Positions 18,821 to 39,571 of a DNA stretch of 44,227 bases are shown here, piece after piece. The notes under the pieces are model-generated. The model had not been told where the DNA came from. It saw only the letters and a program-made list of their open reading frames with translations, and did not search any database. A program made the position numbers and the translations under genes. Source of the DNA: Bacteroidota bacterium. GTDB taxonomy: Bacteria > Bacteroidota > Bacteroidia > Flavobacteriales_D > Crocinitomicaceae. The first letter of the stretch is position 1. The number at the start of each line of letters is the position of its first letter. The DNA lies in contig VGMK01000001.1 of the NCBI GenBank assembly GCA_016866375.1, positions 1 through 44,227 on the forward strand, in the 5' to 3' direction.

Positions 18821-19094
18821 CGTCAAAAACTAATTTCTTAATAATCAACAGCCTAAACTACCCACCAAAACAATCCCGATGGAGATGGAGACACCACTGC
18901 CAAAGATTGAAAAACATAACCTTACGATTGGTGCTATCAGGCGAGGAAGTCAATTGAGAATGAATATAACGCGCATGACGTTCGCCTAATACTCAAAATA
19001 AAATCGATCCTATAGAAAGCGTAAAATATTTAAAAAATAATTCAATCATTAACGACAATTTTTTGGTATAAGATAAGAATAATATTTTTCTTAT

Positions 19095-19271: not shown

Positions 19272-19706
19272 GTGCTTAAAACCAACACTAAATATTTTAT
19301 TAAAAATCACCCCATTGAATTGGAATGGGACTTCTCTGCTATTGGTGGTTTATTCATATATTACCTTAATTCATCGCGTTGGAAAATTCTAAATTTCAGG
19401 TTCACAAAAAAAAGAAACAACATAATAATTTTTCAAAACAGTGATATCATCGATTTCAAATTGTACAGAATTTCATGGTTTCGAATTAAAAAAATGAGTG
19501 TTTTTCATATTTCACCCAAAGCCATTGATCTTGTGAGTACAAAAGTTGAGGTAAAGGAAATAAATGCTCCAGGCATTAACTTTAACTTTTTATCTTTTCG
19601 TAAAAACCCTATTCTTATTAAAGCTAATGGAGAGATTGGACAATTTCACTCTCCGCAAATTTCTAAATTTAATTTAACCATAAATCCATTTACTTATCAT
19701 GAATGA
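19272..19706 (+). CDS. Hypothetical protein (GTG start)
   Basis: 144-aa ORF starting right after the previous stop and overlapping the next gene by 8 nt. No motif recognised. Confidence 0.45.
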   Translation: MLKTNTKYFIKNHPIELEWDFSAIGGLFIYYLNSSRWKILNFRFTKKRNNIIIFQNSDIIDFKLYRISWFRIKKMSVFHISPKAIDLVSTKVEVKEINAPGINFNFLSFRKNPILIKANGEIGQFHSPQISKFNLTINPFTYHE

Positions 19707-22044: not shown

Positions 22045-23210
22045 GTAGTACCGTGCAATATTTTTCTGGAGATTTCATGTCAAGTTTTACAACGGCACAT
22101 GAATACACGAAAAATATTCTACATTTCGAACAAAACACCTCACAACTAATTATCTGTGGAAACGTATTGGTTACGAATGTCACGTATTACGATAATCTGC
22201 CATTGCCAAGTGTCGACTTGCCACTCAAACACGGAGATGAACTTTCCTTCGTAGAATTTAGAGATCATAATCCTGAATTATCGAGAAGAAGAAATATTTT
22301 TGATTATACCATTTCTTCTCTAAAAATTTCTGATTTTCAAGAAATAGATGGTGTTCCTCATGGTATTCTTACTGGAAGAATTACAGGTTGTTTAGTAAAA
22401 AAAGAAAAACAGGAAACCAATCAAGATCCTCCATTATCTTCCGAAACTGTCGAAAATTATTCTACACACACACCGTATACAACTCCTACGCAACTTTCAG
22501 AACGAAAAGGATGCGGAGCAAACCCACTTTTAAACTCGACCTCGCTGGGCCGAAATGGTGGTTGTGGAAGGTTTTTACCAAATACTGGGATTGCGAATCG
22601 AGGTTGCGGAAACATGGCGATACCGGGTGTAATGCCAAATGGATGTCGCAACAGCGGTTGTTGGTCTATTTTATCCTATTTAATTTGGGTGCCTTTGCTA
22701 TTTAGTTTATTTAAGTTTTGTGATAATAGCGATCAAGAGGATCGGAACATGCCAAAAGTTGAAGATAACAAGAAGGATTATTGGGAAGAAAATTCTGAAG
22801 AAGATTTTGGAATAGACTCTACTAAAATTTTGGACAATACCTATGAAATCCAATACAAATCGATTCTATTGCCTAATGTGCAATTCTTCACCAATAGCGA
22901 TAGAATATTGGAATACTCCAAAAAAGAACTAGATGAATTGAGTTTGTATTTCAACGAAAACAAGGAACTAAAAGGGATCATTTTTGGTTATACTGATGAT
23001 AAGGGAAATAAAGAAAAAAATCAACGGTTATCTCAAAAAAGAGCAGAAGCTGTAATGAATTATCTCATTGAAAGGGGTGTTGAATCCAGCCGCTTATCGG
23101 CAATTGGCAAAGGGGAATCCGACCCAAGAGCGAGCAATAAACTCAGAGAAGGAAGGTTAATGAACCGCAGAGTTGAAATTACCATTGTTAAAAAGGTGAG
23201 AAGAAAATGA
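22041..23210 (+). CDS. OmpA/MotB-like peptidoglycan-binding domain protein with a cytoplasmic N-domain, a Cys-Gly-rich segment and a single TM
   Basis: C-terminus: FFTNSDRILEYSKKELDELS...GYTDDKGNKEKNQRLSQKRAEAVMNYLIERGV...GKGESDP...NRRVEITI. TM helix WSILSYLIWVPLLFSLF. ATGA overlap upstream. Confidence 0.85.
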   Translation: MSSTVQYFSGDFMSSFTTAHEYTKNILHFEQNTSQLIICGNVLVTNVTYYDNLPLPSVDLPLKHGDELSFVEFRDHNPELSRRRNIFDYTISSLKISDFQEIDGVPHGILTGRITGCLVKKEKQETNQDPPLSSETVENYSTHTPYTTPTQLSERKGCGANPLLNSTSLGRNGGCGRFLPNTGIANRGCGNMAIPGVMPNGCRNSGCWSILSYLIWVPLLFSLFKFCDNSDQEDRNMPKVEDNKKDYWEENSEEDFGIDSTKILDNTYEIQYKSILLPNVQFFTNSDRILEYSKKELDELSLYFNENKELKGIIFGYTDDKGNKEKNQRLSQKRAEAVMNYLIERGVESSRLSAIGKGESDPRASNKLREGRLMNRRVEITIVKKVRRK

Positions 23211-24922
23211 CGGCGGAACGTATATATTTCAAAGCTAGGGCCATTGGGTATTACCATGTGGAAGATTCACGTCAGACGGGACCATATTCTTTTGCTGAAA
23301 TAGAAATTACGCAGTTAGACCTCGTTGAACTTAAGGAAATTGATGCATTCGACTTTAATGAGTTGAAAACTGGATTATTTCATAAACCAGAACGTAAAAT
23401 AAAAGCAGTGAGAGTCTTTCTTGAATCAGGAACGTATTTGAAAGAAGACATTCGCGATATTCTTTTCAGGCGCATCGAGAAAACGGATAAATTAACAGTT
23501 GAGGGCCAGGAATGGATAGGATTTACTGCCGATGCTTATTTTATCATTGAACGAAAAATCGAAGTCAAGCAAACACTAATCCCAACTGTTAATAGGAGAA
23601 CTATTTGGCCATTTTCACGAACAGGCACCACAACACAGACAACTACATTTGATACAAAAACAGGGAGCTCAACAGGAATAAATGTAGATCCGGTAGCCAC
23701 TGCTCCAGCATCTCCACTTCTTGGTTACTTGGTATTATTTCTTTGCTTCGTGTTTGTATTCGGGTTGTTCTTCGGATTTGGTGGAGGAACCTTGTTGTTT
23801 TTGGTACTTTTAGGTATTTCATTCCTACTTTCCTTTCTTGGTGACCGTTTTCCAGTTTTTCAACGCATTTTCGGAGTTAACTTTCCTTTATGGAACATCA
23901 TCGGTTGGATTTTTATATTTTTCAGTTTACTAAGTTTTGGAACCTATGGTCCAGACAATGGAAACATAAGTGGGTTCTTACTCGGGCTGGCTATCATCCT
24001 ATGGTCACGCAACGCTATTTGGCTGCGACGAATCGGACAACTTTCATTTTTTATCGTTATGCTTATGTTTTTGGCTAATTCCGGTATTTTAGGTTGGCTT
24101 GAGGATATCCCCGAAAAAACAAAACGAAAAAAATATACTGAAGACAAAGAATTTGTTGAGGAAGATCACATTAAATTTAAAAGAGAAAAAGATACCGTAG
24201 AAAACGACCAAGGTGAAAAAGTAGTTCGCGAGAAACTTATGCATTCATTAAATTGGACAGATAATTATCAAATGAATCATCAAGCTGTAATTAGTGTTTT
24301 TAAGCAGGATTATGAATCTTCAGAAATTAAGCGAAACAGAAGTGAAGTAAATGAAACGTCGGCATTGAGGTATTGGAACAGAGTGTATGCTCAACTTATT
24401 TACGACAACAAAGAGTACTTGGAACAGGTTATTGCCACTTTCAATCAAATTGGTAAGTCGAAACAACTCGATAGAAAAGGATTTGCAGACATGGTGGTTT
24501 CAGGCATACAAAACATACCCTATTACTTAGTTCATGATTTATCGCATGATGACGCCGATAGACAATTCGGTGGATTCATTACGGAATGGCACAACAAAGG
24601 TGGTAATTGCTTAGAAAAAATGAAATATGGTATTCAGGCTCCAGCTGAATTCATGGGGAATTTTAAAGGTGACTGTGATACACGAAGTGTTTTGTTGTTT
24701 TATGTCCTATCGAGATTTAAGTACGATGTCGCTATTTTAATTTCAGAACAATACGGACATGCAATATTAGGAATAGCCGGAGATTATTCAGGAAAATATA
24801 AAGAATACAACGGATATCGTTATTTTGCTTGGGAAACCACAGCAACCAATTTCGTTCCAGGAGTACTTGCTCCTGATTTCGGAAACATGAACTATTGGAA
24901 AATTGCATTAACTAATAACTAA
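23207..24922 (+). CDS. Polytopic membrane protein with a putative transglutaminase/papain-like C-terminal domain
   Basis: Thr-rich linker, about 5-6 TM helices, then GDCDTRSVLLFYVL...GHAILGI...FAWETT (candidate Cys/His/acid arrangement). ATGA overlap upstream. Confidence 0.5.
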   Translation: MTAERIYFKARAIGYYHVEDSRQTGPYSFAEIEITQLDLVELKEIDAFDFNELKTGLFHKPERKIKAVRVFLESGTYLKEDIRDILFRRIEKTDKLTVEGQEWIGFTADAYFIIERKIEVKQTLIPTVNRRTIWPFSRTGTTTQTTTFDTKTGSSTGINVDPVATAPASPLLGYLVLFLCFVFVFGLFFGFGGGTLLFLVLLGISFLLSFLGDRFPVFQRIFGVNFPLWNIIGWIFIFFSLLSFGTYGPDNGNISGFLLGLAIILWSRNAIWLRRIGQLSFFIVMLMFLANSGILGWLEDIPEKTKRKKYTEDKEFVEEDHIKFKREKDTVENDQGEKVVREKLMHSLNWTDNYQMNHQAVISVFKQDYESSEIKRNRSEVNETSALRYWNRVYAQLIYDNKEYLEQVIATFNQIGKSKQLDRKGFADMVVSGIQNIPYYLVHDLSHDDADRQFGGFITEWHNKGGNCLEKMKYGIQAPAEFMGNFKGDCDTRSVLLFYVLSRFKYDVAILISEQYGHAILGIAGDYSGKYKEYNGYRYFAWETTATNFVPGVLAPDFGNMNYWKIALTNN

Positions 24923-24925
24923 ATT

Positions 24926-25450
24926 ATGAAAACAGATTTTTACATTGCCCTCACTCAACTCAGCACCTCTGTTGTTATGGGAATTTTAACCGTTTACTTA
25001 ACTAAAGTAATTGTTACGAAATATTACAAAACTAAAACTGGACAAGTAAATCCTTACCAAAACACTTCGTTCATGATTTTTCTTGCCGGAACCATTTTTT
25101 CGGTCTCTTACATGGTTTATGGTATAAATGAACCTTTAGCCGAAACCATGCGCATATTACAGACGCAAGAACTTAGTAAATCTAAGTTAATACTAGAATA
25201 TTTACGTTTTGCAGGGATGTTCCTGACGCTTGCATACGCGTTCAGTGCTGGGGTGATTTTTTTGGCTTACAAACTCTTTTCAATTTTAACCGCGCAATTG
25301 GATGAATATGAAGAAATATCGCGCAATAATATCGGTGTTGCCATACTAGTAAGTGTTTTGACCATTGTAATTGCTTTGTTTGCACATATTGCCTTCATCG
25401 GGTTTATTCAAACATTTATCCCTTATCCAGAAATGCCAACTTTTATCTGA
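24926..25450 (+). CDS. Multi-pass membrane protein, DUF350-like
   Basis: Four hydrophobic helices. EEISRNNIGVAILVS resembles the DUF350 N.AVA motif. Starts 3 nt after the upstream stop. Confidence 0.4.
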   Translation: MKTDFYIALTQLSTSVVMGILTVYLTKVIVTKYYKTKTGQVNPYQNTSFMIFLAGTIFSVSYMVYGINEPLAETMRILQTQELSKSKLILEYLRFAGMFLTLAYAFSAGVIFLAYKLFSILTAQLDEYEEISRNNIGVAILVSVLTIVIALFAHIAFIGFIQTFIPYPEMPTFI

Positions 25451-26952: not shown

Positions 26953-27411
26953 ATGCCCCACCTCGAACCCACATACCTCCGCTACATCTACGATGGCCTT
27001 ATCAAAGGAAGTATCCACCCGGAGAATGCTGCTGAATTACCTGATGGTTTGATTGGTATGTATGAAGAAGCCTTCGACGAGCGGACTTCGGTGGTGGAAC
27101 GCCAAAAACTGTTGCAACACTTTGCAATTTGGGCTTTGTTGAAGAAAGAGGTAAGTGCAGCTTTTGTATCCGAAGTTTTAGGAGAAACCGAAGACGACAT
27201 CCAAGAATTCATTTCCACCTACAGTGCCTGGTTCAACAGCCCAGAGAGCGGCAAATATCAATTGTACCACGAGCGATTGAAAGTGTATTTGTTGCAGAAG
27301 TTGAGTGAGGGGGAAGTTCATTCACTGCATGAGAAACTGATTACTCGTATAGAAAGAGCCATTGAAGAGCAAAAAGCGGATGAATTTGAGTGGTATGGGT
27401 TGGAGTTTTTA
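26953..27411 (+). repeat. Copy 1 of a dispersed direct repeat (shared 5' module of the three sensor genes)
   Basis: First 48 nt identical to copy 2. High nucleotide similarity through codon ~122 to both other copies, and through codon ~153 to copy 3. Confidence 0.85.
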
Positions 27412-30400
27412 ACTTCACATTTGGCAATTGCCGCTATGCTCAATGGTGATGGTAAGAAACTGATCAAACTTGCTTATTCCCAAACACATTGGCAACGCCA
27501 ATTGAAAATCAGCAAAGGGTATTCCTGGACAAAAAACAGCTTACAAGAAGTGATGGCCTGGGCTTCTAAATACAATGACGACGAGGTCATTGAATGTGGC
27601 TTGCAGATGGTTGATTTGCACCATCAGGAACAGAATGCAGCGCCTCAAATAGTGGCATTAGTAGCCGAGGGAGAATTTGACGCTGCACTCAAACGTATTG
27701 AGCAATTTGGAGGAAGTGACAAGGAGGGCTTGCAACGGAAGTTTATTTTATATATGCTATGCTTAATGGAGCTTACTTTACTTGGTAGTAAGGATAAACC
27801 AAACCGAAAAGTTGGAATTGACAAATTACTGAAGCATTTAGATGAGCAATTGCCGGTAGATTATTCTATTTTAAAATGGAATGATTTCTTTCCGAGTAAT
27901 ACCATGTTTTTATTGGCATGCGAATGGCATGCATTACGACTCGATTATTTAATTCCGTTCAAAAGAACCGATGCTTGGAATACAGACTGGCTTTCTGTAA
28001 AAGGGCCATATAACGATTCACAATTCGAGATTTTAATTGCCTGTGCAACAGGGATAAGTGATGATAATAGGAAGAGTAGCGCGCTAAAATTCATCAGTGC
28101 CGAACTGGCTAAACAAGGTAATATAGAAGAAGCCCTTGCCTGCGCAACAGGGATAAGTGAAGAGTCAGATAAGAGTAGCGCGCTAAAGGACATAAGTGCC
28201 GAACTGGCTAAACAAGGCAAGATAGAAGAAGCCCTTGCCTGCGCAACAGGGATAAGTTCTGATAGGGCAAAGAGTAGCGCGCTGGCGGCCATCTCCACCG
28301 AACTGGCTAAACAAGGCAAGATAGAAGAAGCGGCATCTGCGATGCAGAAAGCCCTTGCCTGCGCAACAGGGATAAGTGCTGATTGGGCAAAGAGTAGCGA
28401 GCTACAGGACATCAGTGCCGAACTGGCTAAACAGGGTAAGACCAAAGAAGCTGCATCTGTGATACAGGAGGCGCTTGAATGTGCCCGAGCCATTAGTGAT
28501 AATATACTTAAGAGTATGGCGCTAAAGGACATCAGTGCCGAACTGGCTAAACAAGGCAAGATAGATGAAGCCCTTGCCTGCGCAACAGGGATAAGTTCTG
28601 ATTGGGCAAAGAGTATGGCGCTAAAGGACATCAGTGCCGAACTGGCTAAACAGGGGAAGACTGAAGAAGCAGCATTTATGATGCAGGAAGCTCTTGAATG
28701 CGCCCGCGGCATTGATATTAACAATAGAGGTTTGATTAACAAGGTTAGAGCGCTAAAGGACATCAGTGCCGAACTGGCTAAACAAGGCAAGATAGATGAA
28801 GCCCTTGCCTGCGCAACAGGGATAAGTGATGAGTCAGATAAGAGTAGCGCGCTAAAGGATATCAGTGCCGAACTGGCTAAACAAGGCAAGATAGAAGAAG
28901 CGGCATCTGCGATGCAGAAAGCCCTTGCCTGCGCAACAGGGATAAGTTCTGATATGGAAAAGAGTAACGCGCTAAAGGACATCAGTGCCGAACTGGCTAA
29001 ACAAGGCAAGATAGATGAAGCCCTTGCCTGCGCAACAGGGATAAGTGATGAGTCAGATAAGAGTAGCGCGCTAAAGGACATCAGTGCCGAACTGGCTAAA
29101 CAAGGCAAGATAGAAGAAGTGGCATCTGCGATGCAGAAAGCCCTTGCCTGCGCAACAGGGATAAGTTCTGATATGGAAAAGAGTAACGCGCTAAAGGACA
29201 TCAGTGCCGAACTGGCTAAACAAGGTAAGATAGATGAAGCCCTTGCCTGCGCGATAGGGATAAGTGATGAGTCAGATAAGAGTATGGCGCTGAATGACAT
29301 CAGTGCCGAACTGGCTATACAAGGCAAGTTAGATGAAGCCCTTGCCTGCGCAACAGGGATAAGTTCTGATTGGGCAAAGAGTGACGCGCTAAAGGACATC
29401 AGTACCGAACTGGCTAAACAAGGCAAGATAGAAGAAGCCCTTGCCTGCGCAACAGGGATAAGTTCTGATAGGGCAAAGTGTAGCGCGCTGGCGGCCATCT
29501 CCACCGAACTGGCTAAACAAGGCAAGATAGAAGAAGCGGCATCTGCGATGCAGAAAGCCCTTGCCTGCGCAACAGGGATAAGTTCTGATAGGGCAAAGAG
29601 TGTGGCGCTGAACGACATCAGTGCCGAACTGGCTAAACAAGGCAAATTAGAAGAAGCCCTTGCCTGCGCAACAGGGATAAGTGGTGATAATCTGAAGAGT
29701 AGCGCGCTGAAGGACATCAGTGCCGAATTGGCTAAACAAGGCAAGATAGAAGAAGCCCTTGCCTGCGCAACAGGGATAAGTTCTGATAGGGCAAAGAGTA
29801 GCGCGCTAAAATTCATCACTGCCGAACTAGCTAAACAAGGTAAGATAGAAGAAGCGGCATCTGCGATGCAGAAAGCCCTTGCCTGCGCAACAGGGATAAG
29901 TTCTGATTGGGACAAGAGTGACGCGCTAAAGGACATCAGTGCCGAACTAGCTAAACAAGGCAAGATAGATGAAGCCCTTGCCTGCGCAGCAGGGATAAGT
30001 AATGATTATTGGAAGAGTAGCGCGCTAAAGGACATCAGTGCCGAACTGGCTAAACAAGGTAAGATAGATGAAGCCCTTGCCTGCGCGATAAGGATAAGTG
30101 ATGAGTCAGATAAGAGTATGGCGCTGAAAGACATCAGTGCCGAATTGGCTAAACAAGGCAAGTTAGAAGAAGCCCTTGCCTGCGCAACAGGGATAAGTTC
30201 TGATAGGGCAAAGAGTAGCGCGCTAAAATTCATCACTGCCGAACTTGCTAAACAGGGCAATTGGACGCTTGCAGAAACTACAGGCTTGGAGATTCCGTTA
30301 TCAAATATTAGACATCTTTGTTGGCAGAATATTGCAAACAATTTTATTAACGAAAACAGTTGGCAGAGGTCTTTGGAAATGGTAAATCAATTTCAAAATT

Positions 30401-30648
30401 TCGAGGCAAAGAATCACTACTTAAAAGGTTTTTCGGATTCAATACGTGCATACGAATGTTCAGAAAATCTATTTCTTTCGGTAAATAGATTTTATTTAAA
30501 TAACTTAGATTCATTAGAAACACTTTTACAAAAACATGCGTTGCATCAATTGTTTTTCCAAGATGCTTCGGCAGTAAAGTTAGAACGCTTTAACCGCACA
30601 CTGAATATCCAATGGGCGATAGACATCAAAAACCAATTACCAAACTAA
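26953..30648 (+). CDS. Sensor arm 1: STAND-type helical/winged-helix module plus about 21 tandem 33/40-aa helical (TPR-like) repeats
   Basis: N-terminus PTYLRYIYDGL...LPDGLIGMYEEAF...KLLQHFAIWALLKKEVSAAFVSEVLGETEDDIQEFIS..SAWFNSPESGKYQLYHERLKVYL fits the post-NTPase PLYL...winged-helix (Y.F.H..L..YL) pattern of NACHT/NWD-like STAND proteins. Then the repeat ACATGIS....KS.ALKDISAELAKQGK.EEAL. Confidence 0.8.
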   Translation: MPHLEPTYLRYIYDGLIKGSIHPENAAELPDGLIGMYEEAFDERTSVVERQKLLQHFAIWALLKKEVSAAFVSEVLGETEDDIQEFISTYSAWFNSPESGKYQLYHERLKVYLLQKLSEGEVHSLHEKLITRIERAIEEQKADEFEWYGLEFLTSHLAIAAMLNGDGKKLIKLAYSQTHWQRQLKISKGYSWTKNSLQEVMAWASKYNDDEVIECGLQMVDLHHQEQNAAPQIVALVAEGEFDAALKRIEQFGGSDKEGLQRKFILYMLCLMELTLLGSKDKPNRKVGIDKLLKHLDEQLPVDYSILKWNDFFPSNTMFLLACEWHALRLDYLIPFKRTDAWNTDWLSVKGPYNDSQFEILIACATGISDDNRKSSALKFISAELAKQGNIEEALACATGISEESDKSSALKDISAELAKQGKIEEALACATGISSDRAKSSALAAISTELAKQGKIEEAASAMQKALACATGISADWAKSSELQDISAELAKQGKTKEAASVIQEALECARAISDNILKSMALKDISAELAKQGKIDEALACATGISSDWAKSMALKDISAELAKQGKTEEAAFMMQEALECARGIDINNRGLINKVRALKDISAELAKQGKIDEALACATGISDESDKSSALKDISAELAKQGKIEEAASAMQKALACATGISSDMEKSNALKDISAELAKQGKIDEALACATGISDESDKSSALKDISAELAKQGKIEEVASAMQKALACATGISSDMEKSNALKDISAELAKQGKIDEALACAIGISDESDKSMALNDISAELAIQGKLDEALACATGISSDWAKSDALKDISTELAKQGKIEEALACATGISSDRAKCSALAAISTELAKQGKIEEAASAMQKALACATGISSDRAKSVALNDISAELAKQGKLEEALACATGISGDNLKSSALKDISAELAKQGKIEEALACATGISSDRAKSSALKFITAELAKQGKIEEAASAMQKALACATGISSDWDKSDALKDISAELAKQGKIDEALACAAGISNDYWKSSALKDISAELAKQGKIDEALACAIRISDESDKSMALKDISAELAKQGKLEEALACATGISSDRAKSSALKFITAELAKQGNWTLAETTGLEIPLSNIRHLCWQNIANNFINENSWQRSLEMVNQFQNFEAKNHYLKGFSDSIRAYECSENLFLSVNRFYLNNLDSLETLLQKHALHQLFFQDASAVKLERFNRTLNIQWAIDIKNQLPN
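28039..30260 (+). repeat. In-frame tandem repeat array, 99-bp and 120-bp units, about 21 copies
   Basis: gcctgcgcaacagggataagt...gccgaactggctaaacaaggcaagatagaagaagccctt recurs head to tail. It leaves long stop-free antisense ORFs. Confidence 0.95.
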
Positions 30649-31013
30649 TGCCCCACCTCGAACCCACATACCTCCGCTACATCTACGATGGCCTTGTAAA
30701 AGGAAGCATCCATCCGGAGAATGCCGCAGAATTACCAGACGGCCTCATTGGCATGTACGAAGAAGCCTTCGATGAGCGCACTTCCGTGGTGGAACGCCAA
30801 AAACTGTTGCAACGCTTTGCCATTTGGGCACTTTTAAAGAAAGAAGTGAGTGCAGCATTTGTATCCGAAGTTTTAGGCCAAACTGAAGACGACATCCAAG
30901 AATTCATTTCCTCCTACAGCGCCTGGTTCAACAGCCCAGAAAGTGGCAAATACCAGTTGTATCACGAGCGCTTGAAGGTGTATTTGTTGCAGAAGATGAG
31001 TGAGGGGGAGGTT
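30648..31013 (+). repeat. Copy 2 of the dispersed direct repeat
   Basis: See copy 1. Similarity ends abruptly after the gagggggaggtt segment. Confidence 0.85.
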
Positions 31014-33146
31014 GCTGAATTAAATTCTAAAATTGTTGAATTTCTTCTGCATAAAGTAAATGATGCGCAGGAAAATGAATCGGTTCTTTACTGTTTTGAA
31101 AATCTATCATTTCACTTATTTTTAAATGGATATCTAACGGGGGAAAGTGCACTTTTGGCTCAATTTTGTCTTGATGATAATTTTAAAAAACGACAATTTG
31201 AACTATCTGGTTATTATGACTGGGAAGAAAAAATGATGGTTTTAGGAGTGGAATACTTTTCCCTCAAACAAGATTCGATTTGTCATCAAATAGTATTTGA
31301 GAAAACAAAAATACAATTTAAGAAAAAGAATATTGATCTTATAATTTCTTTACTTAAGCGAGATAAATTTGAATTATTATTTTCATTATTTAAATCATTA
31401 TATGAAAAAGAACTTGAGCAAAGGATAGCAACCGCTTATTTGTATCATTTAACTTTTTTTGAAATTTTTGAATTGGAAAACAAAAGTTTTATACTGAAAA
31501 AAGAAATTGCAAATCAACTTTTAGAAACTTTCGAAGAATATTTCATTTGGGATAGAGGTTATTATTTGGCACAGTTTATTGATGTAAATATATTATTTCG
31601 CTTACACTGCTATTTTGTGCAATTTGGTTTAGATTTTAAAAAAATCGCTATTCTTTCATCTGATCAGAATACAGAATATTATGGTTTGGACATTAGGTAC
31701 GAAGATTTAAAGTTTATTGATCCAAAGCATAAGGAAGAAGCAATTACCATTCTACAACTTTTTAAAATATTCGATTACGGTATTAGTTATGTTGAGAAGT
31801 CGAAAATTGTAGATTTAGTTGATGAATTAACTAATAATCCGATTAACAATAAACATTATGCTTTTAGAAGTCATCTGCAGAAAAAGCTTCAAATTATTGG
31901 TAAAACAAAATTGCTAAAACAAAACGATTTGATCGAAATTGTTGAAAATGAAGTTCATTCGTTCAAAGAATTGATTTTGAGTATAAAATTTATTTTAGGA
32001 ATTAATGAGTTAACACATCATTTGAAAAGAGAGGCAAGCTTGCTTTTCCAAAAGACTTTATTAGAACAAGCTAATGGTAAATTGGAGTTTTCAGGTTACT
32101 GGCATAGAAATGATTTAAAAATAATTAAATTAGATAATAAAATAAGCTCAAATCAAACTCAAATATTGGATTTATTGACTGTTGAGTCGTTCGGTTCAAT
32201 GGACCCAAAATCTAGATTCGACGCGTTGAATAAAGTTGTTTTTAGCGAAGAATTAGAGGTTGAAATACTCCTTGCTTTTTTAGATTTATCACTCTTTTTT
32301 GATGGTAATGAGAACAAAGATATTCTAGATCTTTTTTCATCGTTATTTGTGGAATTTATTTTGGACACAGATGAAGAAAAGATAATGCTATACACGTCAA
32401 AATTGTTTGACTCATTAGCAAATATGGAACACCATTCTGAGGAGTTTGAAGATAAAATATTTGATATAACAATCAATTTTTTTAAGAGTAATGATTTCAA
32501 TGGATATTCCAAAAGCACCTTGGTAAATTATCAAGAGAGTATTCTTAACCTATATTTCGACTTCAATTTCTATAATTATTCTTTCAAACAAGGTATTGCA
32601 TTAATTAATTTGTTTAATCAGCATCAAATTGATTTTCCAGAAGAAGAAATCATAGAAAGAATTCTTGAAGATCTTGATGCTATGATTGAAGAGAATGATT
32701 ACAATGAAATGTGGGTTATTGAAAACTCAAAAATTGACCGAGTTTATTCAAAATCCTATTTCTCGGATTTTTACGATTGTGTAAAAAGAATCCAAATAGA
32801 ACAGGTAAGAAATAATTTGAGTGAATATATTTTTGAGTCGATTATTGAACTGAAAGGCCTTAATTACAACACCATTTCCTTTTTTAGAGAAAATGCAAAT
32901 GAATACCGAGGAATGTATTTATGGGCCAAAAAACGCTTAAGTCAGAAATTATTTGAAAAAAATGAAGAGTTATCCTATGTTGTGTTAAAAGACAACAACG
33001 ATTTATTATTGGAGCGCTTACTTCTGAATATCGTCTCCAAAAGAGAAAATTTGAAGGAAGAAATTAAAATTGAAACTCTCAAACATTATGGCTTGGATTG
33101 GGTAATTGAATTGGATAATGAGTATGAAAAATTAATTGCCAACTAA
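30648..33146 (+). CDS. Sensor arm 2: same N-terminal STAND helical/WH module plus an unrelated AT-rich helical C-terminal region
   Basis: Start set at MPHLEPTYL (the ATG overlaps the upstream TAA as TAATG). 5 substitutions relative to gene 1 in the first 122 aa, then complete divergence after SEGEV. Confidence 0.8.
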   Translation: MPHLEPTYLRYIYDGLVKGSIHPENAAELPDGLIGMYEEAFDERTSVVERQKLLQRFAIWALLKKEVSAAFVSEVLGQTEDDIQEFISSYSAWFNSPESGKYQLYHERLKVYLLQKMSEGEVAELNSKIVEFLLHKVNDAQENESVLYCFENLSFHLFLNGYLTGESALLAQFCLDDNFKKRQFELSGYYDWEEKMMVLGVEYFSLKQDSICHQIVFEKTKIQFKKKNIDLIISLLKRDKFELLFSLFKSLYEKELEQRIATAYLYHLTFFEIFELENKSFILKKEIANQLLETFEEYFIWDRGYYLAQFIDVNILFRLHCYFVQFGLDFKKIAILSSDQNTEYYGLDIRYEDLKFIDPKHKEEAITILQLFKIFDYGISYVEKSKIVDLVDELTNNPINNKHYAFRSHLQKKLQIIGKTKLLKQNDLIEIVENEVHSFKELILSIKFILGINELTHHLKREASLLFQKTLLEQANGKLEFSGYWHRNDLKIIKLDNKISSNQTQILDLLTVESFGSMDPKSRFDALNKVVFSEELEVEILLAFLDLSLFFDGNENKDILDLFSSLFVEFILDTDEEKIMLYTSKLFDSLANMEHHSEEFEDKIFDITINFFKSNDFNGYSKSTLVNYQESILNLYFDFNFYNYSFKQGIALINLFNQHQIDFPEEEIIERILEDLDAMIEENDYNEMWVIENSKIDRVYSKSYFSDFYDCVKRIQIEQVRNNLSEYIFESIIELKGLNYNTISFFRENANEYRGMYLWAKKRLSQKLFEKNEELSYVVLKDNNDLLLERLLLNIVSKRENLKEEIKIETLKHYGLDWVIELDNEYEKLIAN

Positions 33147-33148
33147 CC

Positions 33149-33607
33149 ATGCCCCACCTCGAACCTACCTACCTCCGTTACATATACGATGGCCTTATCA
33201 AAGGAAGCATCCATCCGGAGAATGCCGCCGAATTACCAGATGGCCTCATTGGCATGTACGAAGAGGCCTTCGATGAGCGCACTTCAGTAGTAGAACGCCA
33301 AAAACTGTTAAAACGCTTTGCCATTTGGGCATTATTGAAGAAAGAAGTGAGCGCTGCATTTGTTGCGGAAATATTGGGAGAAACAGAAGATAACATCCAA
33401 GAATTCATTTCCACCTACAGCGCCTGGTTCAATAGCCCAGAAAGTGGCAAGTACCAGTTGTACCACGAGCGCTTAAAAGTGTATTTGTTGCAGAAGTTGA
33501 GTGAGGGGGAGGTTCATGCGCTTCACGAAAAACTCATTGGAAGATTAGAAAAGGCCATAAAGGAACAAAAAGCAGATGAATTTGAGTGGTATGGGTTGGA
33601 GTTTTTG
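33149..33607 (+). repeat. Copy 3 of the dispersed direct repeat
   Basis: See copy 1. Confidence 0.85.
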
Positions 33608-35458
33608 GGATATCATTATTCAATTGAAAGTAAATCAACAAAAGACTCAAAAATTGCCAAAGATTTTTTTAACCTGTTTTATGATTTCCAATCATCAAAG
33701 AAGATTCTCAAAAGGCAACAAGAGCTTTCCAATTCTTATAAGTGGTCAAAAGAAAACCTTCATCTTTTGAGTGAACTAGGGATCATTTTTAATTCATATA
33801 AAATATTTAATATTTCAGATATAGCTTGTGAAATTCATAAAGAAGAGTATGATATTATTGAAAAATTAGAAAAACTCTTGATTGATGGGAATAATAACCA
33901 TGCAATTGATTTAGTTTCTGAGCTTCATGCAGATGAGTTAGAATTAATAGAAATAAAGATTTATCATTTATTATTTGTACTATTTTCAATTGAGGATGAA
34001 AATAGTATTAAAAACGTTGTTCTTATTCTTGAAGATTTATTGTCTAAAAATGCTGGTGAGCTGTTCGATTTAGAAGAAGATATACTTCGAAATATCGGAG
34101 AACCGTCAAGTCTAATTTTTTCAATTTGTACGAAAATAGAATGTTTTGGGTTTTCTTCAGAATTTATAATTCAAAGTTGTAATGACTGGGAATCGAGGGG
34201 ATTCTTGTCAGATTCCAAAAATAATTTAATTGATTATAGAAGCATTATTGATGTAATAAAGTCAGTAATAATTCAAAGAAATAGTGACTTTTATTCTATC
34301 AATATTGAATTCGAAAAGCCAGAAAAGTTCATCGATAACTACTTAAAGACATTAGAATTATTGGAGTCTGTAGAAAATTTCAATGACGAGGCGGAGGTAT
34401 TTCATTATTTTATTTCAAATAAAGGAGCGTTTAATTTAACGAATGTATACGCATTAGTAAAATGTTTTCAATCCTTCAAATCTCAAAATGTAAAGGATAT
34501 TTTGGTAGATAAGTTTTGGGAAATTTTAATTCTAGATTTAGATGTTATTGATTACATTTTCGATTTATCAAATAACGTTACCTTAAATAGACTGGCATAT
34601 ACTAAGTCTGAGGTTTTATCTGAAATTTCCTCAATTAGTCAATCCCCGAAAATATTGGATTCTTGCAGAGCAATAATTGAAATAAGAAATCAAAAAGATT
34701 ATCTAGAAAAATTAGACATTTCTTTTTGTAGCAGATTTGATTCATCATTTGAATTCAAATTTCATTGTTTACAAGCAGTACTAAATCCCGAACAAAAAAA
34801 AGTCTGTTTAAATTTAAAGTATCTTTATTTTAAAGAATTATTCGAATCGAATATTGAAACAGATATTTTAAATTATAATATTGACATTTTAGAAGAGTTC
34901 GTGGCCTTTTGCACCTTTTGCAAACAAAAATATAGTGAACTTATAGATGAGCTTGTTACTTGTTTTGTTAACAATCTTGGGCACTATGAGAAGTGGCAGT
35001 TTGATGAAAATTTATTTTTTTTAATCGACGAAATGAACAAAAAGAGTCTATCTATTGAGGCTTACAAAATCTTGGATATGATGAAAACACCACTGATTCA
35101 AAAAGTGACACTAATGAAGTCATTTGCGAATTGGGCGTTCTTTAATAATCATTCACTGTCATTTAAAAGTGAAGAACTTGCTTTCATTAGAAATGAACAT
35201 CGACAATATGTTATTCTAGGTTGGTTAAAAGATGGTTACGGTTCAGTATCATTTGATTTAAACGTTGGTAATGAATTGCCTTACGTTCCAAATTCGCTTA
35301 TTAATCAAAGTTTATATCTGGAAAATCAAATATTTATAATTGATAGACCAGATATACTTAAATTATTTTCCTTGAAACTAATTGAGGAAGAAAATAATAC
35401 TGAAAAGATGAAATCATTTTTCCCCTTTATTTACAGTACTTTAGAAAACTCCAATTAA
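33149..35458 (+). CDS. Sensor arm 3: same N-terminal module plus a third, unrelated AT-rich C-terminal region
   Basis: ATG 2 nt after the upstream stop. 5 substitutions relative to gene 1 in the first 122 aa. Shares the extension VH.LHEKLI.R.E.AI.EQKADEFEWYGLEFL with gene 1 only. Confidence 0.8.
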   Translation: MPHLEPTYLRYIYDGLIKGSIHPENAAELPDGLIGMYEEAFDERTSVVERQKLLKRFAIWALLKKEVSAAFVAEILGETEDNIQEFISTYSAWFNSPESGKYQLYHERLKVYLLQKLSEGEVHALHEKLIGRLEKAIKEQKADEFEWYGLEFLGYHYSIESKSTKDSKIAKDFFNLFYDFQSSKKILKRQQELSNSYKWSKENLHLLSELGIIFNSYKIFNISDIACEIHKEEYDIIEKLEKLLIDGNNNHAIDLVSELHADELELIEIKIYHLLFVLFSIEDENSIKNVVLILEDLLSKNAGELFDLEEDILRNIGEPSSLIFSICTKIECFGFSSEFIIQSCNDWESRGFLSDSKNNLIDYRSIIDVIKSVIIQRNSDFYSINIEFEKPEKFIDNYLKTLELLESVENFNDEAEVFHYFISNKGAFNLTNVYALVKCFQSFKSQNVKDILVDKFWEILILDLDVIDYIFDLSNNVTLNRLAYTKSEVLSEISSISQSPKILDSCRAIIEIRNQKDYLEKLDISFCSRFDSSFEFKFHCLQAVLNPEQKKVCLNLKYLYFKELFESNIETDILNYNIDILEEFVAFCTFCKQKYSELIDELVTCFVNNLGHYEKWQFDENLFFLIDEMNKKSLSIEAYKILDMMKTPLIQKVTLMKSFANWAFFNNHSLSFKSEELAFIRNEHRQYVILGWLKDGYGSVSFDLNVGNELPYVPNSLINQSLYLENQIFIIDRPDILKLFSLKLIEEENNTEKMKSFFPFIYSTLENSN

Positions 35459-35463
35459 ATAAT

Positions 35464-36054
35464 ATGCGAACAATTAAACACAAATTTTATGAAAACCCAC
35501 TTCCGTCATGGGAGTGCAAGACCCTAATTCTAGGTACATTCAATCCAGAAATTGGTTCTGATGCTGATTACTATTATGGACGAATTCGACCAACAGGCGG
35601 TTGGAGCAATCGATTTTGGCCAGCAGTTAATTCTTATCTCGAAGTCAATTGTCTGGAAATTCCGCTCGCTGGAAAAGGTGATTTAAATTCAAAAGTCAGA
35701 ATAATGTCTAAGTTCAAATTTGGATGTGTAGATATTATTTCTCGAATTGAATGCAGGAATGAGGAGTATATTACAGGGAACGGCTTCGCAGATGCAGCAA
35801 TTTTTCATCCACATAACAAAGTTTATTTTAATACTGAGTTGATTATTGATTTTATCAATTCTAACGGAGTAAAGAAGGTCATTTCTAGTTTCGGCAGAGG
35901 AACTTCACTGAATCAAAGTGCTTTAGCTGAAATAGATAGCATTAAAATTGCATGTACAAAAGTTGATTTTCACTTATTTGATTTACCTGCCTTCGGAAGA
36001 CCAATGAAATCGACCGAGCAGTTTGGAAAGGAATTGTTTAAATTTATTTTATGA
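35464..36054 (+). CDS. Uracil-DNA glycosylase superfamily protein (deoxyinosine/MUG-like pattern)
   Basis: CKTLILGTFNPEIGSDADYYYGRIRPTGGWSNRFWPAV resembles the LILGSFPS...YY.h..N.FW N-terminal motif of UDG-superfamily glycosylases. ATGA overlap with the next gene. Confidence 0.45.
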   Translation: MRTIKHKFYENPLPSWECKTLILGTFNPEIGSDADYYYGRIRPTGGWSNRFWPAVNSYLEVNCLEIPLAGKGDLNSKVRIMSKFKFGCVDIISRIECRNEEYITGNGFADAAIFHPHNKVYFNTELIIDFINSNGVKKVISSFGRGTSLNQSALAEIDSIKIACTKVDFHLFDLPAFGRPMKSTEQFGKELFKFIL

Positions 36055-37583
36055 CCCTCACAACCCCACCCAACCTCCCACCACGCCTCCTGCATAGAAT
36101 CGAGGCGGTTCAGAAAGAAGATGACGCATACGCTGCGGATGAACTCGTTGAATTAGGTGAAGAAATTCTGTCCCAATTGGCTGCGTTGGGAATTGCTGTT
36201 TATTTGCAACAAGGGAAGCAGAAAGAAGTGTTTAACGACTTTTTGATTTCGTTGTTTTTGTCGAATGGGCATGCCTATAATGCAGGACCGCTGTATCGCT
36301 GGGCGGCAAATATGATCAAAGAAGCAGAAAGCACAGATGCAGAATTATTGAAGCCCTTTTTCTGGCAAGAGAAGGACGGAAAAAAAGTGTTGAACGAGGC
36401 CATTCATCATTTGGCGAGTTTGCGCAATGCGGTGATGCACGGTTTTTTTGTTTTGCCTCCTGAAAGAAATAGAGAAGAGACGCAAAAGATGACAGCGATT
36501 TTGGAGCAAATGAACAAAGCTGGTTTGTTTGAAAAGCAATTTGGAACGTTTCATTTTGTGGATTCGAATGGATTCAATGGGCATTGGAATATAATTGATT
36601 CCAAAGCGTGGACAAATTTCTCCGAATGTTTTTCCTTTGGGGAATTAGCTCAGCGGGTTTCACATGAATACTCAGAGAATTTCCGATTAGAAGAACGAGC
36701 ATTTGCCACGGAGAAAACAACTTCACACGCAGATGTCCAACAAGCTACCTATGAATTGCTCGAAAAAGGCAAAGGGGCATTGGTGTGTTGGTACAGTCCG
36801 GGTTCCAAAGGTGGAAAAGAAGCTTATCGTTCAATGGTTCAGTCGGTATCCAACGAAACTTATCTGCCTATTTACTATGCCTTGCATGAGCGTGGAGCCA
36901 CTTTTACCACCGCATTTTTTACTAAGGAACTCGGAAATGCGCTCTTTGAGCTTACACAGAAAGAAAATGCGCGAAAAGAACCGATCAAATTTCTTAAAAA
37001 CAGAGACAACTCCAAATTTGTAACGAAGAAACCTGTATTGATTTTGCATGATATTCACGTAGCTTTATTCAACGACAATCACTTGACATTGTTTTTTAAT
37101 GAACTATTTGATGCAGGTATACCCGTCTTATGCACCGCATGGCCGTATCCTTACCTTCGCAGATTTTTCAACCAAGAAGTATATGTGGATGAACAACCGA
37201 AACAAATTACAATTGAAATTATCGAATACTCGTTGAACAATTACTTGCGCTTCAAAGGGCCGAGCAAAGAACAAAACGACCAAGTTGCGGAATACCAAAA
37301 AGTAAAGGATATCGTGTTTGCAATACATCAACAATTGGAAAACGGTGAATCCTTAGTTGCACGACGCTTTGCAGATCAATACACTTACCCGATTGAATTT
37401 GTGCACGAGGCTTTCAGTATTTTGAGTCCCTTCTACAGGCTTGATAAAGAAAAATTTAAAGAGGATGAGGTGGATGAGTTGTATGGATTCCCAAAAACCA
37501 TCGAAGAAAGTTCACGAATTTTCTTAACTTTAGGTCGACGTGATGTGAAACTGGAATATCAGCATAGAGTGTTGTCGAAATAA
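36051..37583 (+). CDS. HEPN-like (RNxxxH) N-terminal domain plus a degenerate P-loop NTPase-like domain
   Basis: LASLRNAVMHG (R125-H130, nt 36423-36440) fits the Rx4H HEPN motif. WYSPGSKGGKEAY is a degenerate Walker A. PVLILHDIHV is Walker-B-like. Same layout as the 38084 gene. Confidence 0.5.
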   Translation: MTLTTPPNLPPRLLHRIEAVQKEDDAYAADELVELGEEILSQLAALGIAVYLQQGKQKEVFNDFLISLFLSNGHAYNAGPLYRWAANMIKEAESTDAELLKPFFWQEKDGKKVLNEAIHHLASLRNAVMHGFFVLPPERNREETQKMTAILEQMNKAGLFEKQFGTFHFVDSNGFNGHWNIIDSKAWTNFSECFSFGELAQRVSHEYSENFRLEERAFATEKTTSHADVQQATYELLEKGKGALVCWYSPGSKGGKEAYRSMVQSVSNETYLPIYYALHERGATFTTAFFTKELGNALFELTQKENARKEPIKFLKNRDNSKFVTKKPVLILHDIHVALFNDNHLTLFFNELFDAGIPVLCTAWPYPYLRRFFNQEVYVDEQPKQITIEIIEYSLNNYLRFKGPSKEQNDQVAEYQKVKDIVFAIHQQLENGESLVARRFADQYTYPIEFVHEAFSILSPFYRLDKEKFKEDEVDELYGFPKTIEESSRIFLTLGRRDVKLEYQHRVLSK

Positions 37584-37597: not shown

Positions 37598-38053
37598 ATG
37601 GATTTAAAACTAAAATTTGGTGAAAACTATATTCTACTTGCTGGATTAAGGCAGTTTATTGAGCACGGAGTAATACTTTCCTCGGTTAATTTTTGGAGAG
37701 ATAGCTTTCAGAATTTTCAGGAGTTAAGAGCAGTTGATAAACGTTCAGAAATACTGAAAACGAATAATGCTTTTTATGAAGATGAGTTTCTCGTTTCCTT
37801 TGTCAATGAAGAATTTCCGGTATTTGAAGATCAAATTCCGGATGACGTAATCCCAACAGTTTTGAAATTAATTGAGCACGAGGAAGGACCCAAAACCGCA
37901 AGTTTGACCAAAGAATTTCTATTGCAATACGCAGTTTTTATTGCGAAATCTTCAAAGGAAGATTATTTAGCATTTGTAGGAATCAAGGATTCGATAAGTG
38001 ATGAAGAGCAAGTATTTATAGAGAAAATAAAACATTTGTTCGATGAACATTAA
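37598..38053 (+). CDS. Small acidic hypothetical protein
   Basis: 151-aa ORF in the operon. No motif recognised. Confidence 0.5.
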   Translation: MDLKLKFGENYILLAGLRQFIEHGVILSSVNFWRDSFQNFQELRAVDKRSEILKTNNAFYEDEFLVSFVNEEFPVFEDQIPDDVIPTVLKLIEHEEGPKTASLTKEFLLQYAVFIAKSSKEDYLAFVGIKDSISDEEQVFIEKIKHLFDEH

Positions 38054-38083: not shown

Positions 38084-39571
38084 ATGAACCCAATCCAACA
38101 CTACCATAAACGCTACGAAGAAATAAAGCTAGAGAAAAAGGTTTCTTCAGATATTGACGTGTTAGCAGACCTCATTGAGAACGATAACGCTGGCTTGAAT
38201 AATTTCTTCATGGCTGCTTTTGGAATGAGCACCTTGATCTTACGCATGGGAGCGGTCATACAAATGTGCCGAAAATTTGAACTTTTGGATGAATACGGAG
38301 ATGCTCTTTTTACAAAACAAGTGTTGGATAACCTCCGCGAAACCTTGCCCTCCGATACCAGTTGGAAGAATGTTTGGAATATCAGTGCTGTGGATGATGC
38401 TTGGAAAAGTCCAACGCTTCAAGCAAAAGGCGGTCAGTCGCTCTTAGATCGGTTTGTGACATTTAGAAATAAGTTCGTACATCAAACTATTCAGTTGACT
38501 CAAAATAGTCTGCCGCAGTTAAGCAACGGAGTAACAATGTTTGAGGAACTTACAAACCTCATTTCGCTTTTTGAAAATGGGAATTTAGAACTAATCGAGG
38601 GAAAATACCATTGGGTAGAAAATAATAAATCCATATGTATGTATCCTTATGTTCAAGTTGGAATGGAAAAAGATCATCCCTACATTTTTCAGGGTTTGCA
38701 TAAGTCAAAAGAAAAAGTTGCCATTCTCAACTTAATCGCAGGAAATGAGGAAGCGCAAGAGGCTCAGATATTAGAACAAGTTTTTGAACCGATGCGCTCT
38801 TCCTTACAAGGTGGCGCCGGACAAGTATTCGATCACAGCGAACGCATTGCCTATTACCAATCTTGTTTTGTTGGTCGTGATCGAGAGAAAAATGCCATTC
38901 TAGATTTCTGTGCGCATAATGACAATCAGAACATACTCTGTGTAAAGTCTCCAGCAGGAATGGGCAAAGGAGCGTTAATTGCCGACGTGATTCAACAATT
39001 AAAAGAGAATAAAACGCAAGTGCTCTATCATTTTTGTGGTGCCGGAATGCAAAACAGTCTTCATGCTGCATTGTACCATTTTATTTTGCAGGGCACAAGA
39101 ACAGCTTACTGGGATCGCTCAGATGAAACCATTGACCGTAAATTGAATCGTTTGCCATCAAAACTTATCGATGTAATCCATTTGTTTCAGTCCTTGTTGA
39201 GTGAACACTTGAATATCCAAAAAAACAACACCACAGGAAATTTAGTCATCATCATTGACGGCCTCGACGAAGCCCAAGTTGCCTATTCACAACTCAAAAT
39301 ATCGGATTGGTTTTATTCCTACAACGAAAAAGAAGAACCGGAAGAAGATTGGCGAAGCGCATCAAACATCCGCTGGGTTTTTACCTATCGTTGCGATGAC
39401 GATGGAAAAGAATCCTTTTATCAATTTCCCAAGATGAAAGAATGTGTTCACATCGACATGCTACAGCCCCTTCAAGGACTTTCCCCAGCAGCAGTTGATG
39501 AAGCATTTAAGGATTTCAAGGTGTCTGATGATTTTAAGAAAACAGTGATTGAGAAGGCGGAGATAGTATAA
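38084..39571 (+). CDS. HEPN-like (RNxxxH) N-terminal domain plus a STAND-type P-loop NTPase core lacking the winged-helix and sensor regions
   Basis: FVTFRNKFVHQ (R128-H133, nt 38465-38482). FVGRDREKNAILDF...ILCVKSPAGMGKGALIADV is Walker A with Gly in the usual Ser/Thr position. NLVIIIDGLDEA is Walker B. RWVFTYR is a sensor-1-like strand. LQPLQGLSPAAVDEAF follows, and the protein ends at ...TVIEKAEIV. Confidence 0.7.
   Translation: MNPIQHYHKRYEEIKLEKKVSSDIDVLADLIENDNAGLNNFFMAAFGMSTLILRMGAVIQMCRKFELLDEYGDALFTKQVLDNLRETLPSDTSWKNVWNISAVDDAWKSPTLQAKGGQSLLDRFVTFRNKFVHQTIQLTQNSLPQLSNGVTMFEELTNLISLFENGNLELIEGKYHWVENNKSICMYPYVQVGMEKDHPYIFQGLHKSKEKVAILNLIAGNEEAQEAQILEQVFEPMRSSLQGGAGQVFDHSERIAYYQSCFVGRDREKNAILDFCAHNDNQNILCVKSPAGMGKGALIADVIQQLKENKTQVLYHFCGAGMQNSLHAALYHFILQGTRTAYWDRSDETIDRKLNRLPSKLIDVIHLFQSLLSEHLNIQKNNTTGNLVIIIDGLDEAQVAYSQLKISDWFYSYNEKEEPEEDWRSASNIRWVFTYRCDDDGKESFYQFPKMKECVHIDMLQPLQGLSPAAVDEAFKDFKVSDDFKKTVIEKAEIV

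Follow-up and report, generated by a model that had tools for sequence, protein, structure and literature searches.

What is the role of a tandem array of repeat units that are nearly identical except at one short patch of residues, and by what process could such units be kept alike while the patch varies? The question is raised by gene c1 in the 44,227-nt stretch of DNA analysed here (the window), which corresponds to positions 1 to 44,227 of the forward strand of contig VGMK01000001.1 from a member of the Crocinitomicaceae, Bacteroidota (GenBank assembly GCA_016866375.1). The gene carries 21 tandem units resembling tetratricopeptide repeats (TPR). We consider it probable that the array serves as the arm by which a NACHT-type STAND conflict system, i.e. 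a bacterial NLR-like system, recognizes its ligand, that the units of the array have been homogenized by recombination and that the binding face has been selected to vary. The gene and its parts are as follows.

26953..30648, + strand: c1 sensor-half gene, 1231 aa, comprising an N-terminal module with a putative docking role, a helical linker, the 21-unit array and a 129-aa C-terminal domain.
27319..28035, + strand: helical linker from the winged-helix module to the array, with 37–41 % identity to residues ~580–820 of fused homologues (described below).
28036..30258, + strand: repeat array, 21 TPR-like units of 33, 40 or 44 aa, with anchor motif ELA[KI]QG.
28438..28788, + strand: units 5–7, including the divergent units 5 and 7, which have an LECAR scaffold and scaffold distances of 10–23 nt.
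28657..28788, + strand: unit 7, an ELA[KI]QG-anchored unit of 44 aa with an extra GLIN within the patch.
28789..29226, + strand: recent duplication of a two-unit 219-nt block (units 8–9 and units 10–11), 216 of 219 nt identical.
30259..30645, + strand: 129-aa non-repeat C-terminal domain (NWTLAE...) that caps the array and is kept after the last unit in the relatives P0001, P0015 and L026.

A preliminary description made from the DNA letters had reported about 21 tandem units of 33 or 40 aa, a 7-aa insertion in about a third of them and a set of recurring patch types. The count of 21 was recovered, with 13 units of 33 aa, six of 40 aa, a partial first unit and, absent from the earlier listing, the 44-aa unit 7. 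The insertion was present in 7 of the 21 units (AASAMQK in four, VASAMQK in one, and the variants AASVIQE and AAFMMQE), and every patch type that had been listed was found in the array. Tandem Repeats Finder and a second repeat finder agreed on periods of 99 and 120 nt across ~28031–30370, and both returned higher-order periods of 219, 318 and 417 nt. The variable patch comprises the four codons that follow GGG-ATA-AGT (G-I-S), to which the x of KS-x-AL can be added. Relatives of the C-terminal domain that caps the array were encoded in 49 metagenome loci. An antisense ORF (open reading frame) of 672 aa (27945–29963, − strand) crosses the array; it exists only through the absence of stop codons from that frame of the repeat unit, and it was taken as non-coding.

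Variation among the units was far from uniform. Entropy per column was maximal at patch positions 1, 3 and 4 (2.07, 2.58 and 2.23 bits) and at the x of KS-x-AL (2.01 bits), with an intermediate value at patch position 2 (1.21 bits); scaffold columns mostly fell within 0–0.6 bits, with a few up to ~1.2. Mean pairwise identity among units was 87 % (amino acid) and 89 % (nucleotide) for the scaffold, 29 % and 54 % for the patch, and 78 % for whole units, or 80 % leaving out units 5 and 7. Using Nei–Gojobori counts over all unit pairs, for which recombination lies outside the model, we obtained a proportion of nonsynonymous differences (pN) of 0.49 and a proportion of synonymous differences (pS) of 0.38 across the four patch codons, versus a pN of 0.08 and a pS of 0.20–0.22 in the scaffold. 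The earlier statement that variation is concentrated in the four residues after GIS is therefore borne out by both entropy and pN/pS, with the KS-x-AL position also variable. The scaffold, which had been called almost invariant even as DNA, is indeed strongly conserved, but at the above nucleotide identity and pS the wording was too strong. When scaffold dS (synonymous substitutions per site) was taken as a clock of unit divergence, patch dN (the nonsynonymous counterpart) was 3.06 times scaffold dS (bootstrap over units 2.4–4.3). The orthologous array L001b, which has been homogenized independently, displayed the same pattern (patch pN 0.34, scaffold pS 0.13), its Jukes–Cantor-corrected patch dN being ~2.9 times scaffold dS. 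Short of a formal test, the comparison of patch and scaffold indicates diversity-maintaining selection.

The synonymous sites of the scaffold were also informative about how the array evolves. Scaffold pS was low within the array and within its L001 orthologue (values as above) and reached 0.54 between the two arrays. Low values within arrays combined with high values between them indicate concerted evolution, or else independent recent amplification in each lineage. The arrays carry their own scaffold signatures, with LACATGIS here, LECARGIS in P0001 and LACASGIS in P0015. More distant family members were not homogenized (within-array pS 0.6–0.77), and among 60 homologous arrays the present one ranked fifth in internal homogeneity. 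Sliding-window comparison revealed blocks of ~200 nt at 96–99 % identity within the array. In addition to the duplicated two-unit block listed above, near-identical copies included units 3 and 14 (98/99 nt), units 17 and 21, and units 12 and 20 (95/99 nt for each of the last two pairs). The scaffold pS values and the near-identical blocks support recent amplification with gene conversion, which the preliminary description had offered as an alternative to modular recognition. Units 5 and 7 stood apart by their scaffold distances, the differences among the remaining units amounting to 1–13 nt. Unit 7 matched a 44-aa unit of the homologue P0003 at 38 of 44 residues, the same 4-aa insertion included. 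Judged by these comparisons, units 5 and 7 look like old, positionally conserved units that escaped homogenization of a recently homogenized array. A nearest-neighbour comparison of protein scaffolds (197/723) was uninformative because the 28-residue scaffold is ~90 % conserved family-wide, and it was replaced by the comparison of synonymous sites in DNA.

Unit number differed between related loci, a comparison that the preliminary description had proposed: there are 21 units here, 18–19 in L001 and three in L026, loci that belong to different species-level lineages. Among the 40 closest homologues we counted 9–22 profile matches per protein, and units of 33 and 40 aa were mixed as they are here. 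In its C-terminal domain, c1 is closest to the L026 protein (4051–5826 of contig Ga0194129_10010859; 591 aa), which is 91 % identical in amino acids in that domain and ~80–83 % identical in nucleotides in the flanks. The N-terminal region of c1 was closer (87 %) to P0009, a sensor whose gene neighbours the L026 gene on the same contig; this likeness hints at mosaic recombination between co-resident sensors. Hypermutation by a diversity-generating retroelement was considered as a source of variation and rejected, as no Pfam-detectable reverse transcriptase was present in the 36 longer ORFs scanned across the 44-kb window. A template repeat of such an element was likewise not found among the repeat families in the window, which were the array, the shared N-terminal module described below and one unrelated 117-nt duplication.

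The units are TPR-like helix-turn-helix repeats that form an alpha-solenoid. Whole c1 matched the Pfam models TPR_2 (76.4 bits, cut-off 27), TPR_12 (62.2, cut-off 30.1), TPR_30 (35.4, cut-off 29.7) and TPR_10 (30.9, cut-off 27.5), and single units were individually weak against Pfam TPR models. An AlphaFold2 model of c1 residues 334–1231, made without an alignment, had a mean predicted local distance difference test score (pLDDT) of 65.5, with 77–88 across the second half of the array and lower values around units 5–7. Each unit of the model opens with a helix of 9 residues (16 in 40-aa units), which a loop of four residues (G-I-S-x) joins to a helix of 17, and a 3-residue loop closes the unit; the patch thus occupies the N-cap and first turn of the long helix. 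Foldseek matched the model to TPR and other helical-repeat solenoids (Ctr9, SKI3, IFT-A and APC/C subunits) with TM scores of 0.14–0.28, low values such as are expected where superhelical pitch differs. In 60 homologues that have eight or more units, variability was highest at unit positions 12, 11, 15, 19, 18 and 9, followed by 22. The top six correspond to h2, h3, h6, h9, h10 and h13 of the long helix and fall within ±71 degrees of one direction, with a periodicity of variability of 100–105 degrees. The observed periodicity was reached by 109 of 10,000 shuffles of the family profile and by 617 of 10,000 shuffles of the array alone. By this helical periodicity the variable sites share a single face of the long helix, a tendency that is strongest towards the N-terminal end. 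The general idea of the preliminary description, a fixed scaffold displaying specificity residues, agrees with a single variable helix face that bears the nonsynonymous excess.

The relationship of c1 to STAND proteins emerged from its homologues and from the genes that follow it. The shared N-terminal module and the downstream genes are as follows.

26953–27318, 30648–31013 and 33149–33514, + strand: shared 122-aa N-terminal module (PTYLRY ... YQLYHERL), direct repeat family D2.
30648..33146, + strand: c2 sensor-half gene, 832 aa, with the same N-terminal module and an unrelated non-TPR C-terminal region; L001 orthologue 57 % identical.
33149..35458, + strand: c3 sensor-half gene, 769 aa, with the same N-terminal module and a third C-terminal type; L013 orthologue 82 % identical.
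35464..36054, + strand: p196, 196-aa accessory gene tightly packed in the operon; 88 % identical in L013, no family match.
36051..37583, + strand: p510, constant partner gene, matching PF18733 (LA2681-like HEPN, LRNAVMH) at E = 0.002, under the cut-off.
37598..38053, + strand: p151, 151-aa accessory gene; 81 % identical in L013, no family match.
38084..39571, + strand: p495, NACHT NTPase half, with an N-terminal domain containing RNKFVH, Walker A GMGKGAL and Walker B IIIDGLDEA, ending where the sensor halves begin.

No protein of exactly the same sequence as c1 is on record. More than 906 homologues of c1 were found, and the best 120 were examined for domain layout. Of these, 18 were fused NACHT/NPHP3_N proteins of 1485–1764 aa that carry PF05729 and PF24883 together with the same arm, in keeping with the earlier remark that repeats of this type occur in the C-terminal arms of bacterial STAND proteins. 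In all 18, c1 residue 6 (PTYLRY...) aligned to residue ~464, just past the NTPase core, and p495 residues 125–397 aligned to residues ~113–377, such that p495 followed by c1 was co-linear with every fused protein. What the locus encodes is therefore a NACHT protein in two pieces, with the break between the NTPase core and the putative winged-helix module. Against Pfam, p495 scored 49.2 bits for NPHP3_N (cut-off 24.8) and 35.2 for AAA_16 (cut-off 32.6), with 19.2 bits for the NACHT model itself, under its cut-off of 26.7. The DGLDE of its Walker B motif fits the NACHT signature D[GAS]hDE (Kibby et al., bioRxiv 10.1101/2022.07.19.500537). Effector, NTPase and sensor do not share one polypeptide here, as NTPase and sensor are encoded by separate genes both in this locus and in ~20 related loci.

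By alignment to the 18 fused homologues, the module shared by the sensor genes probably represents the final part of the helical domain of a STAND NTPase together with its winged-helix domain; the start of c1 also gave a weak match (E = 0.01) to the WHD/HD2 region of Apaf-1, residues 362–496. Pairwise comparison of the three module copies yielded pN values of 0.02–0.03 and pS values of 0.38–0.59 (dN/dS ~0.02–0.06), and such low pN with high pS implies strong purifying selection, not recent duplication. The three sensor genes otherwise have mutually unrelated C-terminal regions, with the TPR array present in c1 only. When c1 residues 1–361 were searched against 1.84 billion representative proteins, 557 clusters were returned, and in nearly all of the best 150 the module begins at residue 1–12 of the protein. 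The gene set recurs in L001 and in ~20 Bacteroidota loci from metagenome-assembled genomes (Crocinitomicaceae, Fluviicola, Chitinophagaceae and Flavobacteriales; freshwater) as an adjacent p510/p495 pair with one to four sensor-half genes. The p510 gene adjoins the p495 homologue in every locus where both were found, and in L006, L008 and L010 the stop codon of the p495 homologue is also the point where a sensor gene starts. In the present operon, the start of c2 overlaps the stop of c1 (TAATG). Our literature search found no paper describing a split multi-sensor layout of this kind; one paper merely mentions the handling of ‘split proteins’.

Some further observations concern the operon. Shufflon-like switching of DNA cassettes between NTPase and sensor genes was rejected because inverted repeats are lacking, no copy of the shared module follows p495, and each sensor gene, within a tightly coupled operon, begins with a start codon of its own. 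Scans for sigma-70 promoters and terminators at the operon edges gave counts no better than shuffled sequence; Bacteroidota promoters are of another type. Directly after p495 lies a gene for a 182-aa FtsK-gamma (DNA-binding winged-helix) protein (39590–40138), a 37 %-identical homologue of which follows the p495 homologue in L002, and this protein may be part of the system. The G+C content at third codon positions was raised in the conserved parts of the system, at 0.51 in the shared 5′ module (26953–27372), 0.45 in the array and 0.40–0.41 in p510 and p495, as against 0.21–0.33 in neighbouring genes and in those sensor regions that are lineage-specific. The codons chosen in the array (AAG, GGC/GGG, CTG, TGC) are unusual for a genome of ~33 % GC. 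Foreign origin or GC-biased conversion in recombining segments are possible reasons for the raised values.

The mechanism that we infer for the proposed recognition arm covers binding by the array, the nature of its ligand, assembly of the halves, effector chemistry and a role in defence. Each unit would pair a short helix with a 17-residue long helix on which the patch, together with positions i+4, i+7/8 and i+11, makes up one exposed face, and the faces of 21 stacked units should form a continuous binding stripe. Unequal crossing-over and gene conversion between near-identical units would homogenize the array and alter the number and order of its units, with selection keeping or promoting amino-acid differences on the binding face. 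The product would be a rapidly re-tunable receptor in which unit shuffling may create new specificities; with different patches on an identical scaffold within one gene, an exchange of patches or of units is expected to alter what is detected. The receptor is encoded apart from its NTPase, c1 beginning at the GxP-like/winged-helix module that normally follows a NACHT core, and c1, c2 and c3 would all dock onto the single NACHT half p495 (with p510) through the shared 122-aa module. As in Avs and bNACHT systems, the ligand bound by the variable face would probably be a phage protein. Binding would then release the sensor/NTPase complex for NTP-dependent oligomerization, after which the N-terminal effector, possibly HEPN-like, would act. 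It is also conceivable, though on balance doubtful, that the locus is a split multi-sensor NLR in which one NACHT half, with its partner p510, is completed in trans by any of three sensors and c1 re-programmes specificity quickly by unit shuffling, a counterpart of fungal NLR diversification (discussed below) combined with plant sensor/helper networks.

Several points weigh against the array being a diversified recognition arm of this kind. Relative to the patch’s own dS, patch dN was raised only ~1.5-fold, and dN/dS among paralogous units undergoing gene conversion is no rigorous test of selection, as conversion could depress scaffold dS whilst old patch variants survive. Assembly may affect the number and order of units in the array. 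The continuous stripe along the solenoid is a deduction from helical periodicity, not a measurement. The AlphaFold2 model of p495, made without an alignment, had a pLDDT of 36, too low to be of use, and a HEPN-like effector is suggested by the motifs RNKFVH (p495) and RNAVMH (p510), with a sub-threshold Pfam match. PADLOC v2 returned no match for c1, c2, c3, p196, p510 or p151, and for p495 only weak matches to the P-loop region (best PDC-S20, E = 1e-5, ~60 residues). With neither the sensors nor p510 matched, the case for a defence role therefore draws on genomic context and family analogy.

These points have to be set against other explanations of the array. It is unlikely, in our view, that the pattern is a neutral by-product of recent unit amplification, with the patch an unconstrained loop or helix start that has neither a recognition role nor adaptive diversification. 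The patch does lie at a loop-to-helix junction, the same positions are the least conserved family-wide, non-homogenized arrays included, and recent block duplications exist. Neutral sites should, however, stay within the synonymous rate, whereas patch dN exceeded scaffold dS about threefold here and nearly as much in L001b, and homogenization that reaches the flanking codons would wipe out neutral patch differences too. The variable positions moreover extend beyond the loop along the helix face (i+4, i+7/8, i+11), and patch positions 3 and 4 often hold aromatic residues in the family as a whole. Similarly, that the array, or the number and order of its units, is an assembly chimera or a mis-expansion of near-identical repeats seems quite improbable, given that the reading frame continues uninterrupted across the 21 units and into the conserved C-terminal domain, that homologues from many independent assemblies have 9–22 units in the same mix of lengths, and that the units can be told apart by 1–23 scaffold differences per pair. 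Units of 99 or 120 nt that are 84–99 % identical over 2.2 kb are nevertheless hard for short-read assembly, and the three units of L026 represent either a collapsed short-read assembly or a true difference in repeat number.

Two other explanations accept the array as functional but assign it a different task. One is a true modular code of the kind known from PPR, TALE and PUF proteins, in which two or three residues of each unit read one element of a linear or periodic ligand, for example an RNA or DNA base. The preliminary description had compared a limited alphabet of residues to such repeats, and the closest sequence matches with solved structures were designer PPR proteins (5i9g, E = 1.7e-14; 6een). 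Patch positions 2 and 4 and the x of KS-x-AL align to PPR positions 35, 2 and 5, which are the base-specifying positions; a few homologues have precomputed PF01535 (PPR) matches, and an RNase-like (HEPN) effector is possible. The alphabet proved open-ended rather than small and recurrent, however, with 679 distinct four-residue patches among 976 homologous units. The commonest patch and family consensus, DESD (24 units in 17 proteins, followed by DDYW, DESE and DDFW), has three acidic residues. Within the array, units with the same patch were also closer in their scaffold nucleotides (0.078 versus 0.115 differences per site; permutation p = 0.005), and the recurrence of patch types therefore reflects unit duplication. 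The array is acidic (isoelectric point 4.87, net charge −25), which argues against nucleic-acid binding, and patch residues include W, Y, F, R, M and L, unlike the N/S/T and D/N pairs of PPR proteins. The phmmer alignment to PPR requires a 3-residue gap in the long helix, so the equivalence of positions is uncertain, and Pfam assigns c1 to TPR families, not PPR. As ligands bind the concave helix-A face of TPR-like solenoids, we read the PPR match as shared topology and give the code explanation hardly any credence; the comparison with TALE, PPR and Pumilio repeats is not supported. The other explanation is a STAND regulator without an immune role, such as a MalT/AfsR-like ATPase whose TPR arm binds an endogenous metabolite or protein. 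Weak NCBIfam similarity to the TPR parts of NsdA and AfsR, the lack of a PADLOC model match for the sensor genes and the failure to identify a DNA-binding or known toxic effector domain are in its favour. Nonetheless, we regard it as very unlikely: the locus lies in a mobile defence island (restriction-modification pair, SNF2 helicase and serine recombinase at a tRNA gene), it has several diversified sensors, its diversified binding face is typical of conflict systems and not of housekeeping regulators, and no helix-turn-helix output domain was found with Pfam.

If the array is the recognition arm of a NACHT-type system, its closest parallels are in fungi. In fungal NLRs, the TPR, ANK and WD repeats are polymorphic in number, show positive selection at positions on the surface and have high internal conservation (HIC), defined as an identity of 85 % or more among repeats across no fewer than 100 aa (PMC4986451). 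According to Dyrka et al., WD and TPR repeats of 80–90 % internal identity are also present in bacterial NLRs, which might evolve likewise (bioRxiv 10.1101/2020.01.06.895854), and internal repeat conservation is not treated in the passages of Kaur et al. 2020 (PMC7159879) considered here. Like the fungal HIC repeats, the array has near-identical units in an arm C-terminal to a STAND NTPase, nonsynonymous change at predicted surface positions, concerted evolution with reshuffling, and a unit number that appears to differ between related loci; the nonsynonymous surface excess and concerted evolution were both recovered by Nei–Gojobori counts on paralogous units, with recombination outside the model. 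It differs in being bacterial (freshwater Bacteroidota), in having units of 33/40 aa rather than the fungal 34/42, in a unit identity of 78 % (87 % in the scaffold), which is under the fungal threshold of 85 %, and in an arm encoded apart from the NTPase. With its family lacking annotation, the array offers a well-resolved bacterial case of a diversification regime documented mainly in fungal NLRs and, for bacteria, mentioned only in passing in the literature found.

The bacterial bNACHT and Avs proteins are antiviral STAND proteins with ‘antigen-receptor-type’ TPR sensor arms (bioRxiv 10.1101/2022.07.19.500537; PMC13581612). The present system shares with them an effector-like N-terminus, a NACHT core with D[GAS]hDE, a putative winged helix, a TPR-like arm and a defence-island setting, and resembles the ‘hybrid’ type in its small C-terminal domain after the arm. 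Here, in contrast, the polypeptide is split between core and putative winged helix, there are three alternative sensor halves, and no PADLOC model matches the sensors. In the PPR, TALE and PUF proteins weighed above, a helical repeat scaffold likewise carries a few variable residues at equivalent unit positions, but the array has no small recurrent alphabet, is acidic, belongs to Pfam TPR families and has nothing to suggest one unit for one base. Plant NLRs form sensor/helper pairs and networks in which each partner is a complete NLR. The analogy with them is that several diversified sensors appear to feed one conserved signalling NTPase; the sensors here, however, have no NTPase themselves and would act in trans to complete the NTPase module. 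This organization may matter more than the array itself, since the NACHT protein is split exactly at the boundary between NTPase core and putative winged helix. If the halves assemble in trans, the locus would provide an instance of one signalling module serving several bacterial receptors, and the split multi-sensor layout would be a new variant of NLR architecture.

Beyond the operon, the window was read as a defence island on the basis of the following features.

54–129: tRNA-Gln, adjoining the large serine recombinase.
92–1702, − strand: large serine recombinase with Resolvase, Recombinase and Zn-ribbon domains, beside tRNA-Gln.
4026–6256: C5 DNA methylase with a BanI/DpnII-like restriction enzyme, island cargo.
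7544–9505: SNF2 helicase, island cargo.
9480–10439: NOV_C protein, island cargo.

The tRNA gene and serine recombinase are likely to mark the edge of an integrative island, which also contains a MerR-family gene. Two genes for RNase_T-family exonucleases (11240–13147 and 15115–16653), one fused to Fib_succ_major (187 bits) and the other with an Exonuc_X-T C-terminal domain, may be further defence-island cargo. The 117-nt duplication mentioned above is a tandem duplication in perfect register with 97–98 % identity (18339–18572), located within a coiled-coil-like minus-strand ORF (17612–18826). Upstream of the NLR operon, genes at 19699–25450 on the same strand encode two DUF4407 membrane proteins, an OmpA-domain protein, a 571-aa membrane protein without a family match and a DUF350 protein, and may constitute a separate membrane-associated module.

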